The notes under the pieces were generated by a model. The model made no database searches. It saw only the letters and a list, made by a program, of their open reading frames with translations, and was not told the DNA's origin. A stretch of DNA of 59,150 bases, from NCBI RefSeq assembly GCF_041146345.1, contig NW_027191417.1:1922001-1981150 (forward strand). Reading direction: 5' to 3'. Source of the DNA: Neodothiora populina (taxonomy: Eukaryota). Made by a program: the position numbers and the translations under genes. Below are positions 190 through 19,736 of the stretch, in pieces (the stretch's first letter is position 1; each line of letters starts with the position of its first letter).

Positions 190-594
190 CTAAAGAGGCT
201 TCATACTCGAGAAACAGTACCGCGCGATCTTCCACTTATCATCGACCTTTTGGCAAATGAAGATTTCCTGGTTGTGATGCTTTTCCTGGGTATCTTTCTT
301 GAGCCAGAATTTAGTTCCCTCTGCTGTCGTCCTGGCAAAAGCCCAGGATTCATCCATGATGACGATCTCGTCGATAGTGAAATCGATCTCCAGCTTGATG
401 GTTGAGAAGATTCGCTCATAAGATGACTTCAGAGCTTCTTGGCCGACTGCCGGCTGGTAGTTTGGAGCCATGAGGACACCATCAGTGGTATAAAGAGAGA
501 GGACTTCTCGAATCGAACGAGATGCTAGTACACTGCCATAAGAGTGCAGAAGCTCTGTGATTTGCGATTGGTCGGACACTGGACAAGTCAACAT
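190..594 (-). CDS. SnoaL-like / NTF2-fold (DUF4440-type) protein
   Basis: Intronless 134-aa ORF with NTF2-like pattern: LYTTDGVLMAP..AVG..A, WAFART, terminal WKIARYCFS. Confidence 0.85.
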   Translation of the reverse strand: MLTCPVSDQSQITELLHSYGSVLASRSIREVLSLYTTDGVLMAPNYQPAVGQEALKSSYERIFSTIKLEIDFTIDEIVIMDESWAFARTTAEGTKFWLKKDTQEKHHNQEIFICQKVDDKWKIARYCFSSMKPL

Positions 595-1441
595 ATGTAT
601 AAGCCAAGGATAATCCGTAGACTATATCGAACAAAACGTACTTTTGGATGAAAGTATCGAGTACAATGAATTGAAGAGTATGTAGCTGGTCAAATATGGT
701 ATGCTTGTATATGAAGACCACGATTGTGAGGCACGACTCGAATGTTAGTGCTTAGTCCCAAAGTTGACAAGCAACTCATTAAATGTGAGGATCCATTTCT
801 ACCACCGCACATTGGTTTCTTAGCATCGTTAGTTCCACCCACTGTCAGTAGCATGAAACCACAGTCATTGCCCATTCTTGTCGGGAAGCTTGTTGGTTGA
901 ATGTCTCCCACGTAACCTCACCCTGGTTCGGCGATTGTGCGTAAAGCCGAGCAGCCCATCGTGTAGGAGCCCCCATTTTTGATAAGCCGCACCATAATTG
1001 CGGCCACATCGTGGATAGGAAACTGTCTGATGCCATCTCAATCGTATGAACTGTATGTGCGGCCGTCTACTGCAACCTGGGAGTCGTGATTTCCAGTAAA
1101 ATACAGGGACAAGGTTATAGTCATGTAGCTCTACTACTTCTTCCCCGACGTATCTCCTTGTACCATAGTAGCCGTGTCAATCAATAACGATTTGCAAAGA
1201 TGGTGTTTAAACATTGCAGCAGGTCTCTTCATTGACATGTATCCCATCTCAAGATGTTGACCGCCGAAGAAGCATTGTAGGAGCCGAGCTCCAAGAGTGG
1301 GACATGATCTCCCAACTGTGATCCAAACCGAGAAGACAACATGCAACAAATAATTAATAATTCTTATACTTCATTGTTACAGGCACTCCCTCAAGGTAAT
1401 TCACGTCGAAAACATACAGCCTCAAGTCACACCATAACAAC

Positions 1442-2303
1442 ATGTCTGCTGTAGGGCTTACCACCTATATATACAATTGACAAGCGACTAACGCCACGCA
1501 GTTTTCATTGAAGGGAAGAACGGCGCTCGTCACAGGTGGCGCTCGTGGATGTGGCCTTGCATTCGCGGAGGCACTTGCCGAAGCAGGTGCAGATGTAGCA
1601 ATCTTCGATGTTATAAACCCGGATGCAGCCTTCGGTGAATTCTCAAAGAAATACGGAGTTAAAACCGCGCATTATCACGTAGATGTCAGCTCGCCTGAGA
1701 GTCTAGAAACCGGTTTCGCCCGGTTCAAAGAGGAGTTCGGCGGCGCTCTCGACATTTGCGTACCATGTGCTGGTGTGAACAAAGACGTGGGCATCCTTGA
1801 CACAACGCCGCAGGATTTCGACAGGCTTGCAAACATCAATTTTAAAGGAGTTTACTTCACTACCCAGATGGCGGCCAAGATGATGATTGCAAACAAAACG
1901 AAAAAAGGCTCCATTATCGTAGTGGCATCGATTGCATCATACAGGGCTATCCGTGGGCAATGCTCATCCGCGTACTGTGCTACCAAGGGTGCCGTGAAGG
2001 CCATGGTGCCTCCGGTAGCGGTCGAACTGGCACCGTATGGGATCAGAGTCAATTCTGTCTCTCCTGGTTACATCCGGACCGAAATGACGGCAGCCTTCCC
2101 CCACATCTTCGAACCCTGGAGGAAGGAGATTATGAGTGACCGGGTAGGTGTACCGGAAGATCTGCGAGGAGCATGCGTATTTCTAGCGAGTGACGCTAGC
2201 AGCTATATCACTAGTCAAGATATAGTCATCGATGGGTACGTCGCATGAGATGATGTTGGTGCCATGGAAGCTAACTATTTCCAGGGGCGTTCTACAATGG
2301 TAA
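1442..2303 (+). CDS. Short-chain dehydrogenase/reductase (polyol/sorbose reductase-like)
   Basis: TGGARGCG cofactor motif, SAYCATK (YxxxK), IRVNSVSPGY. Inferred introns 1451-1501 and 2236-2284 give N-terminus MSAFSLKGRT and C-terminus DGGVLQW*. Confidence 0.92.
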
Positions 2304-16016: not shown

Positions 16017-16536
16017 TCCCTCCTATACATAATACTGACAAAATATATCTTACTTATGGTAATGGCAGCTCATGTTCTCCGTATCCAAGGGCAGAAACTT
16101 CTCAGTATGGTTGTGCAATTGGCAAAAAATGTAATTTTGTTACCGTCATGTACTTTGTAAAATTAGTTGTGCAATGGAACGGAATCTCCCAAGCTTGGAA
16201 AATGACCTGATCAACCATGATTCCCGTAACGCATGATTGTCCATCGCATAGGCTGGTTTTAGGTCTGTTATTCAGCCTTCTATCGAGCACTCGAAGGATG
16301 TCACCACAATATATAGATGGTATTAGGCCGAATAGGTCGAATACGAATCTCCGGAAGTTGGTCTCATCTCTTCGTATCCAGAGACAGAGGCGAATCTGCA
16401 GCACACGCGTCGTTCAAGTATTCAGGAGAGGTAAATTATAATAGAAATTCCTCAGTTTGATCTTGATAGATCACTACTATCACCCGATGATGATTTGCGA
16501 GTCTGCAGCTCTTGTACTATCAATCAACACTATGTA

Positions 16537-19500
16537 TCAACATGAACTCCATCTACCTTCCAAATACTCAACAATCTTTCGGACCAACGTAGCGTCGATG
16601 ACTCGTGCTTCTTGTAACGTGGTAGAAAATTTTCTAGACAAATCTGTCGCGTATTGGATAGACGACAGTATGTTATCGTTATCATACTTGCTAGAAAAGA
16701 ACTCCACTAGCTTTATCGAGGGATTTTTCTTCGGGTTAGGGTTTGAGGCACGCAGTCGACGAATCCATTCTCTTCGATCCACTATGTCGAATTTGAGCCC
16801 CGCCGACCGAAGCAATGGAAGCAGATCTCGAGTCCAGTGGAACGTCCGAGGGTTAGCAATATTCATGACTCCACTACCAGCGCTTGACAGTGTGATCTCA
16901 ATGCAAGTTTTAGCAACATCATCGACTGGCAGCCAAGCAGGATTCTCATCCAGGTTCGGCAACGACGCCGTGGACTCGGCGCTTTGAAAAATCAACGGGA
17001 TCGCCTCTGTCTCGTTCCAGATACCGTTGGCAGTGTCCCCGATGATCTGACCGACACGCAACACTCGAGCCTTCATATTAGTCTGCTTCATAGCGATGTT
17101 ACAGAGGTTTTCAGCCACGAGTTTGGACTGCGCATAGCCCATCCCCTGCGCATAACTCAATGACGTGGGAAGTGCTTCAGGTACGAAGCCACCAGGTGTG
17201 CGTACTGTAGCGCTCACCGATGAACAGAAGTTAAATGATGCCGGTACTGGCCGCCTAACTTCGAGACATAGGTTGATAAGATTGTGCACGCCAGCGATAC
17301 AGTCCTTCTCGAAGCTCGATATCCCCTTGTTGAAGTTGACAGACCACGCAAAATGGAGCACGTGGGTAGTATTATCGGAGATCGTATCATATTGTTCTGG
17401 TGTCAGACCAAGCCGGGTTTCGCTCAAGTCAGATGGCAGGGCAACCATCTTCATCATAGCCGTCGAAGGAAGAGTGTTTAGTAGACGTCGTTCACGAAGT
17501 GAATGTTCAAGGCGCTCTCGTGCAGACTGATCACTCGAGGCTCTAACAAGACAATATACTCGACGGACATTTTCATGGCGCGCCAGTATCGCTACTGCAT
17601 GTGCGCCTAAAGAACCAGTCACTCCTGTTAGAATCTACAGCTATCAGCATGAGGAACGAATGCAATCTGCGTTTCTGTACGCACGATGTAGTGACCATCT
17701 GCTGTTCTCTCAACAGGCCGATGTATGCTCAATTGACTATATCTCTCGATCATGTCTGCCATCAGTTCCTCGACAGTCCTTTCTTGTGATCTGGGCGCAC
17801 CAGACTGAATGCGAAGTAGCTCATCGGCCATGGAGCTCAAGGTGGGAAAGTCGAAGACAAAATTCCTACCGAGATCCTTTGCATTGACTTTGAGGGACCG
17901 TACAATAGAACTTCGAGCCTGGATCGCTTGCAAAGAGTCAATCCCCAAACTGAAAAGATCTGTTGTATCCAAGAGCGATTCGTTGCTCCTTAGTGCGATC
18001 TTCGAAGAAAATTCGTTCCGCAGAAATTCCAGCAGCTCTTCTCTGGGGAGCACAAGCGATCCGCTCTGCTCCTCTGTGTACATGTCATTGATTTCATCTT
18101 CGAAATCGCGATAGAACGCAACTCGGATCACAGTGCCTTTATCGGTTCGGCGATAGTTGGTATCCTGGGGAAGAACTCGGATCATGTCTCTTGAAAGCTG
18201 AGCGTATGCGGGCGCCAATTTGTTGCCCTCTTTTACATGAATCATGATTCGATCTATGAGCTCTGGCTCGGCCATGGTTGAGGTGGGCGCCGGAATCACA
18301 AAAGCACCTAACTGCGCTTTGTTGGCCCCGAAGACGATTGCCTCGGCGACTTGCTCATCTTGCCGAATGGCACCCTCGTGTGCCAACGGGTTCGCCTTCT
18401 CTCCATTTTCTAATACGATCGTGTCGTCTAGACGAGCATAGTATCTCCACGTATCAGGGTTATCGGGATGAGGCTCAAAAAGGTCTTTCGTCGCATATGA
18501 GCCATCGTCACGATTGGTGGCGACCTTTGATGGCCAGCCATCTTTGATGCACAACTCGTAGAGATTAGATCCGCGATTCTCCATACGAAGATATGGCTTG
18601 AGATACAACGGGACGCGCAGCCAGTCCCATCCATTGTCAGATGGATGATCACGGAAAGAGGTCATCAGCTGGCCTAGCTCGGTCGCTCCATAGTGACCCA
18701 CTAGATTGACGCCGTTCTCGACAAGCTTATCCCCAATCGGCTTCGGACAGGCACTGCCTCCAAACATGACGATGTCCAACCTGCGCAAGAGCGCAACACC
18801 TTCATCAGTCTCACTGAGCAATTTCAGAGCATACGGGACAGCGTAAAGGATACGGATATCGGGATGCTGTTGTAGTGTCGCCACGAGGTGGCTGCTGGTC
18901 AGCGGTAGCCGCGCATTATAGATGTAGATCTTCTTCCGAGCCCAAATAGCTCTGAATAAGCAGCACAAGCCATGATTGTGGAACAACGGCAGAGTGATAT
19001 GGCCAACTCTCTCGAAGCTCACTGAATAAGCATACAATGACGCTTTATGTGTTTGGTATATCGGTTTCGGAAGGCCAGTCGATCCACTAGAGTGTATGAT
19101 GAATGATATATTCCCAGACTCCCGCGCCGGATCCATGTATGCTGGGCCTAGCTTGGTATGAGTGTTTAGAGCAGCGCATCGATGAATCTCGATTGTCTCC
19201 AGGTCTGCCCTGCGCACACGCAGTGACTCGGCAGTCGACTGATGTGAAGTATGGTACAACAAGGTCGTGGCTTTCGTTGCTTCAAGCAGGGACATATGTG
19301 CTTCATCGGTGATTCTGGTTGACAGGAGGAGCACAGAATGGCCAAGTCTGGATATGGCCAGGAAACTGATCATATAATCAAGATCAGATGGGCCTAGAAC
19401 AGCCACGACCTCAACTGGATCGTCTGAACTACATCGCTGAGTGACTGATTGAGAATAATGCACTGCCATACTCTCGACCATTAGGTCAAGTTGCTCAGGT

Positions 19501-19736
19501 GTATAGTTCGTATATCTCGTTCCATCTTCGGGATATGCCACAATGGGACGGTCGTGTCCTAACTGTTTTGAACGAAGTCTGATGAGCTGATCGACAGTGG
19601 AAGGCATCATAGCCTCAACACTTTCGCTGTGAGGATTGACCGCGTCGATGTCTTCAATGAACGATGTATGGGGTTTCGTGCTGATACTGTCACTGTATGG
19701 CGTGTTGCCCGCGGGTCGTGCTATTTGTGCGGCCAT
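16537..19736 (-). CDS. NRPS-like carboxylic acid reductase (adenylation-thiolation-reductase)
   Basis: A domain IIHSSGSTGLPKP and YGATE; T domain DLFSLGIDSL; R domain LTGVTGSLG and GYAQSK. One intron 17635-17684 joins the two ORFs. Confidence 0.93.

Follow-up and report, generated by a model that had tools for sequence, protein, structure and literature searches.

A subtelomeric locus of Neodothiora populina that probably juxtaposes half of a split, HxnS-less hxn regulon with a sugar-diacid module

The locus described here consists of nine genes located between positions 190 and 19,736 of a 59,150-nucleotide stretch of DNA from the fungus Neodothiora populina (assembly GCF_041146345.1, contig NW_027191417.1), hereafter the window, which corresponds to C13:1922001-1981150 of a 24-Mb genome. 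Telomere repeats are found at the end of the window, and the nine-gene locus is therefore subtelomeric; the closest relatives belong to Aureobasidium and other Dothideomycetidae. An initial sequence-only reading had proposed that the nine genes constitute one pathway under its own Zn2Cys6 regulator, in which a carboxylic acid reductase takes the place of several genes of the nicotinate-degrading hxn regulon of Aspergillus nidulans. The genes, together with one promoter region discussed below, are as follows (aa, amino acids).

190..642, minus strand: SnoaL/NTF2-like protein, 129 aa (gene model; Pfam SnoaL_2, E 5e-8)
1442..2248, plus strand: short-chain dehydrogenase/reductase (SDR), polyol-dehydrogenase type, 251 aa (gene model; Pfam adh_short_C2)
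2900..4182, plus strand: flavin mononucleotide (FMN)-dependent (S)-2-hydroxy-acid oxidase, 392 aa (gene model; Pfam FMN_dh; PDB matches)
4643..6522, minus strand: major facilitator superfamily (MFS) transporter, 534 aa, probable hxnZ (gene model; length; tandem position)
7449..8658, minus strand: 2-oxoglutarate-Fe(II) dioxygenase, 331 aa, HxnY family (identity to protein P0330; tree)
8659..10465, no strand: divergent promoter region between the dioxygenase gene and its neighbour (elements of the C17 type, described below, and GATA sites)
10466..11744, plus strand: carbohydrate esterase family 4 (CE4)/HpPgdA-like cyclic imide hydrolase, 314 aa, probable hxnM (active-site residues; PDB 3qbu)
12389..13357, minus strand: aldo-keto reductase (AKR), 322 aa, AKR1A-like, carboxylic acid reductase module (Pfam; PDB; co-occurrence)
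13713..16016, plus strand: Zn2Cys6 transcription factor (TF), about 719 aa, its middle introns uncertain (Pfam; co-occurrence)
16537..19736, minus strand: adenylation-thiolation-reductase (A-T-R) carboxylic acid reductase (CAR), 1049 aa (Pfam; relatives; co-occurrence)

Gene modelling found all nine reading frames open, with GT-AG introns and no internal stops, and the Pfam families of all nine proteins agree with the names assigned earlier, such that the description of nine intact genes is borne out. Database records of the window CAR (P0001, 1049 aa), AKR (P0121, 322 aa), and dioxygenase (P0241, 331 aa) have the modelled lengths; in the preferred SnoaL model (window 579-642) an intron separates the first base of the start codon from the other two, whereas the database record begins at a later methionine. 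The three divergent pairs of the sequence-only reading are present, with spacings of 799 bp (SnoaL/SDR), 1807 bp (dioxygenase/CE4), and 355 bp (AKR/TF). Contigs of run X1 span window positions 1-20000 and differ from the assembly solely by two one-base homopolymer gaps, both intergenic, a comparison that is not independent because X1 may be the source of the assembly; the contigs of runs X1, X3, and X4, which look DNA-like, contain no splice joints. The expectation that the cluster extends to the left also held, in that the adjoining 11.5 kb or so contain five more genes of catabolic type, encoding a Rieske oxygenase, a second TF (Fungal_trans family), an amino-acid permease, a type II haloacid dehalogenase (HAD), and a flavin adenine dinucleotide (FAD) oxidoreductase. 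On its right side the CAR gene is followed by unrelated subtelomeric genes.

The distribution of these genes in other fungi indicates that the nine very probably do not form one pathway. The 14 genes of the locus, along with a more distant glutamine amidotransferase (GATase) gene, were searched against 80 metagenomic CAR loci (the best 80 of 93 confirmed) retrieved with an alignment of 20 close CARs; 31 of these loci are at least 12 kb long and collapse to 24 distinct sequences. Among the long loci the AKR gene is found in 19 of 31 (14 of 24 groups) and the Zn2Cys6 TF gene in 26 of 31 (21 of 24 groups), with both present in 14 of the 24 distinct loci. By comparison, the CE4, dioxygenase, MFS, oxidase, SnoaL, and Rieske genes occur in 0 of the 31 long loci, and in none of the full set of 80; the single SDR match, in one long locus, is distant and unrelated (29% identity). 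Measured from the end of the CAR gene, the CE4 gene ends at 4.8 kb and the dioxygenase gene starts at 7.9 kb, and therefore a conserved copy of either would show wherever a locus retains its full 10-kb flank; where less flanking sequence is present, the test is limited. Consistent with this result, in seven named species (single-member entries in both lists) the dioxygenase and CAR/AKR contigs differ in size and none of the seven pairs is shared. The AKR (P0172) and CAR (P0108) of Penicillium mononematosum carry adjacent locus tags, and the divergent AKR/TF arrangement recurs in the closest loci, L009-L011. Thus, these data do not support a single nine-gene pathway with the CAR standing in for hxn genes, nor a conserved co-localisation of all nine, as other fungi have CAR, AKR, and TF genes together and the remaining six genes are not with them. 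Judged by this co-occurrence, the CAR, AKR, and Zn2Cys6 genes are a separate conserved module, of which the Zn2Cys6 factor is the predicted regulator.

Three of the remaining genes, those encoding the CE4 protein, the dioxygenase, and the MFS transporter, are probably hxnM, hxnY, and hxnZ, respectively. The active site of A. nidulans HxnM comprises D13, D15, H87, H91, V125, D200, D201, and H248 (PMC9304392), and the window CE4 matches all eight at identical positions, residues that paralogs may share. Its top PDB match is HpPgdA (3qbu), and a search of its own genome identified it as the sole close HxnM-type gene among four matches, the next of which, at 47% identity, is an SDR-CE4 fusion. The window dioxygenase is 64% identical to P0330 of A. 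mulundensis, a protein taken as HxnY on the basis of its species, its length, and a by-eye match of nine of ten residues at each of two published primers; when P0330 was compared with the N. populina genome, the window dioxygenase was the best match (61-68%) and the next three reached 36-43%. The MFS transporter, of 534 aa against 533 aa for HxnZ, matches by eye eight of nine residues at one published hxnZ primer, the other primer being unmatched, and other members of its family in the genome are 42-44% identical to it. Moreover, dioxygenase and transporter genes follow one another in tandem, as do hxnY and hxnZ in A. nidulans (PMC8478523; PMC5746545). A remnant of an hxnP-like MFS gene was looked for between the dioxygenase and CE4 genes and none was found. 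Elsewhere in the genome, a 570-codon open frame at C6:554244-555953 (L005, L092) encodes a fusion of an SDR with a CE4/HpPgdA-like hydrolase, a combination reminiscent of HxnW and HxnM.

The flavin monooxygenases, amidase, and C2H2 regulator of the hxn system, as well as its old yellow enzyme (OYE), are missing from the window, as the sequence-only reading had noted for the first three; yet they are clustered on another contig, C17, rather than just outside the window. This cluster was reached via genome searches for the phenol-hydroxylase and OYE families.

C17:1915389-1931282 (L090, L091): cluster of hxnV-, hxnN-, hxnX-, hxnT-, and hxnR-like genes (assigned by family, arrangement, and finger position)

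The C17 genes encode a phenol monooxygenase, an amidase, a beta-lactamase-fold hydrolase, an FAD monooxygenase ending in AHL, a cytochrome P450, an OYE, and a C2H2/Fungal_trans factor. The P450 gene has a paralog at C18:477690, with 52% identity between the two, and we take the P450 to be CYP53-like (benzoate-4-hydroxylase-like). The amidase has triad spacings of 75 and 24, the same as HxnN, and the C2H2/Fungal_trans factor has two fingers, the first at residues 8-32 as in HxnR, and matches by eye seven of eight residues at each of two published hxnR primers. The divergent arrangement of the phenol monooxygenase and amidase genes is that of the conserved hxnV-hxnN couple (PMC8478523). Counterparts of the nine window genes are found nowhere in the 30-kb C17 stretch. 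As the cluster contains no CE4 gene and the genome no other close HxnM, the C17 pathway would therefore need the window CE4 to release nitrogen. The only molybdenum hydroxylase match in the genome is of the HxA type, without the alanine insertion diagnostic of HxnS (PMC5746545), and hxnS therefore appears to be absent, as in Penicillium and Aspergillus section Flavi; HxnS-less hxn regulons are known (PMC8478523; PMC5746545). A candidate for the enzyme that took over from HxnS is the C17 P450.

A shared promoter element may link the two contigs. The element was learned from word counts on five C17 intergenic regions alone, and a matrix was built from its five sites; the top de novo 7-mer is G-rich, contains the predicted HxnR consensus, and often stands beside a GATA site. 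For A. nidulans, too, the HxnR and AreA sites are predictions rather than proven sites (PMC8478523). In five left-block regions (Rieske, SnoaL/SDR, oxidase, MFS, and dioxygenase/CE4; 5662 bp) the matrix finds seven sites against 1.07 expected, compared with two against 0.8 expected in six control regions (4233 bp); at a strict cut-off the corresponding values are five against 0.17 and one against 0.13. The strongest copies lie in the dioxygenase/CE4 promoter (9087-9097 on the plus and 9966-9976 on the minus strand), where GATA sites are also present, and the region upstream of the Rieske gene holds several copies, two of them at the strict cut-off. At a cut-off of 11, three of the four other left-flank promoter regions (those of the second TF and of HAD/permease, not that of the FAD oxidoreductase) are without a site. 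A genome-wide composite promoter pattern gave nine matches (two for the reversed control), three of which are the C17 sites that built it. These data are at most suggestive of regulation shared between the left block and the C17 cluster.

The remaining left-block proteins are less readily placed among the Hxn enzymes. The SDR is a candidate for the HxnW step: its PDB matches include, though not as the top match, the HxnW template Gox2181 (3awd), and it resembles HxnW in length and fold class, yet its gene is divergent from that for SnoaL and not from hxnM or hxnX. The oxidase contains an FMN_dh domain only, its best single-domain PDB matches are hydroxyacid and glycolate oxidases, and it ends in ARL, resembling a type 1 peroxisomal targeting signal; plausibly, it oxidises the (S)-2-hydroxy product of the left-block route. 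A cytochrome b5 domain is absent from the 392-aa model by Pfam, the stretch upstream not having been searched with a b5 query. The oxidase gene adjoins the hxnZ-like MFS gene, a place held in other hxn clusters by pfdB, and PfdB is a protein of about 500 aa with a cytochrome b5 domain (PMC8478523; bioRxiv 10.1101/2021.04.19.440407). The window oxidase, being shorter and without that domain, is therefore an independent recruit of the same family and not a pfdB ortholog. For SnoaL, the nearest Atlas clusters are mostly bacterial, which may serve as a lead, and Atlas searches returned generic SnoaL and MFS clusters only. The Rieske oxygenase, an intact 410-aa model at window positions -1470 to about -125 (region L001:8530-10000), has carnitine monooxygenase and betaine demethylase as its nearest structures, and its nearest family model is GbcA, scored below cut-off; no reductase partner was seen nearby. 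Beyond it, the Fungal_trans TF, amino-acid permease, type II HAD, and FAD oxidoreductase of the D-amino-acid oxidase (DAO) family stand in a row (L001:870-7050, L002:8850-10000) and probably form a third small catabolic module.

Viewed against the A. nidulans regulon (HxnS, X, V, T, W, M, N, Y, P, Z, R; PMC8478523, PMC9304392, PMC5746545), the N. populina genes are alike in the HxnM-, HxnY-, and HxnZ-type window genes and the hxnY-hxnZ tandem, in the C17 hxnV/hxnN divergent couple and hxnX-, hxnT-, and hxnR-like genes, and in GATA sites and a G-rich element. They differ in that no HxnS, hxnP, or sure hxnW was found; in the nature of the split, with Y, Z, and M on one contig and V, N, X, T, and R on another; and in the orientation of hxnM, which is divergent here from hxnY and in A. 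nidulans from hxnW. Furthermore, the oxidase, SnoaL, SDR, and Rieske genes are extra here, as are the P450 and beta-lactamase-fold hydrolase genes inside the C17 cluster. Likeness is also seen with the HxnS-less clusters of Penicillium, Talaromyces, and Aspergillus section Flavi, in which hxnS is likewise missing and pfdB, encoding a peroxisomal FMN-dependent alpha-hydroxy-acid dehydrogenase, stands beside hxnZ (PMC8478523).

As for the CAR module, the window CAR has A, T, and R domains with an intact P-loop, carrier serine, and reductase NADPH and Tyr-Lys motifs, features it shares with the Neurospora crassa CAR (8aep). Against 8aep, which we take to be the R domain of that enzyme, the R domain alone aligns well (E 7e-33); no solved A domain of the window CAR subfamily was found, and substrate range therefore cannot be transferred. 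The best PDB matches of the AKR are to mammalian aldehyde reductase, an enzyme that reduces glucuronate. A gluconokinase domain follows the R domain in frame in 29 of the 80 CAR loci, or 28 of the 44 with enough sequence behind the CAR, and scores above the TIGR01313 cut-off in both fusion proteins tested. These four-domain A-T-R-gluconokinase proteins are widespread in filamentous fungi (L012-L016, L018, L020-L022, and 20 other loci; P0019, P0038, P0051, P0070, P0076, and P0117), a feature that the available text of PMC5153877 does not discuss. As quick and FastTree trees place the fusion in several CAR branches, closest relatives included, it was rejected as a mark of the branch of the window CAR and is therefore probably ancestral. 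In addition, a sugar-acid-type MFS gene is found in L009-L018, not in L019-type distant loci, and in two of three pieces tested the neighbouring MFS of relatives best fits the D-galactonate transporter model, below cut-off. In a distant branch, L056:1500-12844 clusters genes for an AKR, a dihydrodipicolinate synthase (DHDPS)-fold aldolase, a galactonate dehydratase (over cut-off), a TF, and a CAR, and is a candidate for a complete galactarate route.

Genetic evidence for this subfamily comes from A. niger, in which no genes respond to galactarate more strongly than the A-T-R gene 39114 and the AKR gene 1090836, both induced about 8000-fold, and deletion of 39114 blocks galactarate use (PMC5153877). 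The published 39114 primers translate to peptides that fit the window CAR subfamily, in another branch. One-to-one orthology of the window CAR and AKR with 39114 and 1090836 was not found; the CARs are of the same subfamily, in paralogous branches. Induction of 3063-fold is seen for a further AMP-dependent synthetase gene of A. niger, 1082594 (3.8 kb; PMC5153877), which could be the kinase-fused paralog. The CAR module of N. populina is one whose relatives are genetically known and biochemically unexplained. Within the window, a pectin/pectate lyase family gene (27442-28776, minus strand) lies 8 kb from the CAR gene and fits the theme of pectin-derived sugar acids only loosely.

We propose, with a probability of roughly 0.68, that the locus juxtaposes two subtelomeric modules, one half of a split, HxnS-less hxn regulon and a sugar-diacid module. 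This interpretation is built on gene integrity, modular co-occurrence, the C17 cluster, the finding of no HxnS-type enzyme, the kinase fusion in relatives, and the shared promoter element. The hxn steps, as well as the need for a CAR of the same subfamily in galactarate use, are by analogy with A. nidulans and A. niger genetics, respectively. Co-regulation of the two contigs, every substrate in N. populina, and the roles of the oxidase, SDR, SnoaL, and Rieske proteins are what we infer. The left module would include the CE4, dioxygenase, and MFS genes, which likely serve the hxn pathway, and probably also those for the oxidase, SDR, SnoaL, and Rieske proteins, and would be controlled in trans by the HxnR-like C2H2 factor of C17 together with AreA. 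The MFS transporter would import the substrate, and a pyridine of the 6-hydroxynicotinate type would be hydroxylated and reduced by the HxnX-, HxnV-, and HxnT-like enzymes of C17, after which an SDR would oxidise the reduced ring to a cyclic imide. The CE4 protein would open this imide to (S)-2-hydroxyglutaramate, a reaction shown for HxnM (PMC9304392). Deamidation would fall to the C17 amidase, and the peroxisomal oxidase could turn the (S)-2-hydroxy acid into the 2-oxo acid, recovering carbon. In these respects the family names, the link to HxnY, HxnZ, and HxnM, and the order of ring opening followed by 2-hydroxy-acid oxidation offered by the sequence-only reading were reasonable, and its single pathway is not supported.

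On the side of the CAR, action of the module on aldarates is favoured, with modest confidence, and the odds are about even that fungi possess a reductive aldarate route employing CAR-gluconokinase fusions. The CAR would reduce one carboxylate of an aldarate using ATP and NADPH, and the AKR would then reduce the resulting uronate aldehyde to an aldonate. Reduced at C6, D-glucarate would yield L-guluronate and then D-gluconate, to be converted to 6-phosphogluconate by the gluconokinase fused in many relatives; galactarate, reduced at one end, would yield L-galacturonate, and this in turn D-galactonate, on which the dehydratase acts. Neither such a route nor the fusion was found described in the literature searched, outside which lie most subscription papers and patents.

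A number of observations weigh against one or other half of this interpretation. P0330 is read as HxnY, and the MFS transporter as HxnZ, from species, length, gene position, and published primers compared by eye, and neither hxnP nor a clear hxnW was found in the genome. In a quick unrooted tree of 47 of 120 hits, the window dioxygenase falls outside a clade (SH-aLRT 99) holding Aspergillus HxnY and groups weakly with proteins of Dothideomycetidae, Chaetothyriales, Venturiales, and some Helotiales; as both groups span Dothideomycetes, Eurotiomycetes, and Leotiomycetes, the dioxygenase may therefore be an old paralog, and the tree fits an old duplication as well as it fits orthology. HxnM paralogs unrelated to nicotinate are widespread, and unclustered hxnM and duplicated hxnY paralogs are documented (PMC8478523; PMC5746545). 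With regard to the promoter element, the background of the matrix is 133 kb of the same genome, partly coding; the Rieske region was included among the tested regions only once its score was known; the SnoaL/SDR promoter has a weak site alone (9.7); and the AKR/TF region (12.9) and the FAD oxidoreductase gene (13.4) have one site each. The G-rich element presumably overlaps the CreA consensus, the plain published HxnR consensus is not enriched across the whole loci L090 and L091, and the six composite-pattern matches that remain show neither hxnW nor hxnP. For the CAR module, the window CAR is 47% identical to the 39114-like P0118 and in a separate branch, the closest AKR of the A. niger group (P0148) is not matched by the 1090836 primers, no kinase domain is present at the window CAR and no kinase remnant was found behind it when looked for, and the genome holds no close ortholog of the module's transporter (best match 34%). 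In A. niger itself, 39114 and 1090836 are unlinked, whereas CAR and AKR are clustered here with a Zn2Cys6 gene; galactarate could still be used after deletion of 1146483, an induced gene of the dehydratase family; and activity of 39114 was undetected in an assay described with NAD(P)(H) only and no ATP listed (PMC5153877).

Three rival explanations take up different parts of this evidence. A dioxygenase in a sister subclade to Aspergillus HxnY would suit a left block that is an ancient paralogous hxn-like cluster standing outside nicotinate breakdown and devoted to another N-heterocycle or betaine (a lactam, stachydrine, or pipecolate betaine, for instance), to which the Rieske, TF, permease, HAD, and FAD-oxidase genes on the left may also belong. 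The documented unclustered hxnM and duplicated hxnY paralogs, the kinship of the Rieske protein with carnitine monooxygenase and betaine demethylase, and the SnoaL, oxidase, and SDR genes extra to the A. nidulans regulon would all suit such a cluster; however, the C17 cluster is without exactly hxnY, hxnZ, and hxnM, the genome has no other close HxnM, and the element trained on C17 is enriched in the left block and found at cut-off in only one of the four other left-flank promoters, such that we regard this explanation as unlikely. Somewhat easier to entertain, if still rather unlikely, is that CAR, AKR, and TF are a separate module that reduces aromatic or aliphatic acids in detoxification or small-metabolite synthesis, the sugar-acid links belonging to relatives only. 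Characterised fungal A-T-R enzymes do act on aryl or alkyl acids, and the absence of a kinase domain and of a linked sugar-acid transporter, along with the modest identity to the 39114-like branch, agrees with this idea; yet the closest relatives (P0019 and P0038 of Aureobasidium; L012-L016, L018) carry the probably ancestral fusion, present in several branches, and L009-L018 the sugar-acid-type MFS.

Finally, a single nine-gene pathway under the window Zn2Cys6 factor, newly assembled in this lineage, would account for the tight packing of intact genes and for a CAR module that, here without its usual transporter and kinase, could have been re-purposed; 2-hydroxyglutarate, the product of HxnN, is a small hydroxy-diacid that might suit an aldarate-type CAR, and the AKR/TF region does contain one C17-matrix site. 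We consider it very unlikely, given the zero count for left-block genes in long CAR loci, a TF that travels with CAR and AKR and keeps the divergent layout of L009-L011, and the presence on C17 of the hxn-type genes said to be missing.

Within the preferred interpretation, that of two modules, the possibly new part lies in the extra genes, namely those for the oxidase, SDR, SnoaL, Rieske, and C17 P450 proteins. A decidedly unlikely extension of it is that a fungus without HxnS rebuilt both the entry to and the exit from the hxn pathway: the Rieske oxygenase would produce nicotinate by N-demethylation of the plant betaine trigonelline (N-methylnicotinate), the C17 P450 would hydroxylate C6, para to the carboxyl, and the oxidase would recover carbon as 2-oxoglutarate or its amide. 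Hints of such a rebuilding include the two strict-cut-off elements upstream of the Rieske gene, the betaine oxygenases as its best structural matches, and the second copy of the P450. No description of an HxnS-independent trigonelline/P450 entry was found in the literature searched; the term "cytochrome P450" is absent from the main text of PMC8478523, PMC9304392, and PMC5746545, and in the available part of PMC7842363 appears in the references only. The view so far has been that HxnS-less hxn regulons require a supply of ready-made 6-hydroxynicotinate; P450 and Rieske genes with the promoter element of the regulon suggest a different way in, while an independently recruited peroxisomal 2-hydroxy-acid oxidase beside hxnZ offers a function for the unexplained pfdB. 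The fungal galactarate/glucarate route is still undescribed in the available text of the 2016 paper (PMC5153877) and of 2019 and 2025 reviews. A two-step reduction is what the gluconokinase fusion, the conservation of the CAR/AKR/TF/transporter module, and a failed assay listing no ATP point to. Such a route is relevant to strains producing mucic and glucaric acid, and biocatalysis would gain a CAR that reduces sugar acids.

Several other genes were observed in passing. On the minus strand of the window are a 5-formyltetrahydrofolate cyclo-ligase-like gene (29552-30346), an alpha/beta hydrolase gene (31234-32613), and a piece of open reading frame (ORF) without a Pfam match (45883-46338), which we take to resemble fungal TNT/DUF4237 NAD glycohydrolase domains; on the plus strand, an ORF at 56963-57625 has a weak Pfam R_equi_Vir match (E 1.6e-5). 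To the left, overlapping minus-strand ORF pieces at L002:6424-7687, with no Pfam match for the piece tested, are presumably a broken GH43-type glycosidase. In A. niger, an isopenicillin N synthase (IPNS)-like gene, an OYE gene, and an aromatic-ring hydroxylase gene at chr_601:320941-341640 are transiently induced 400-800-fold after a shift to galactarate minimal medium (PMC5153877, supplement 1); these are probably the hxn cluster of A. niger, and their transient induction is probably an effect of the nitrogen shift.

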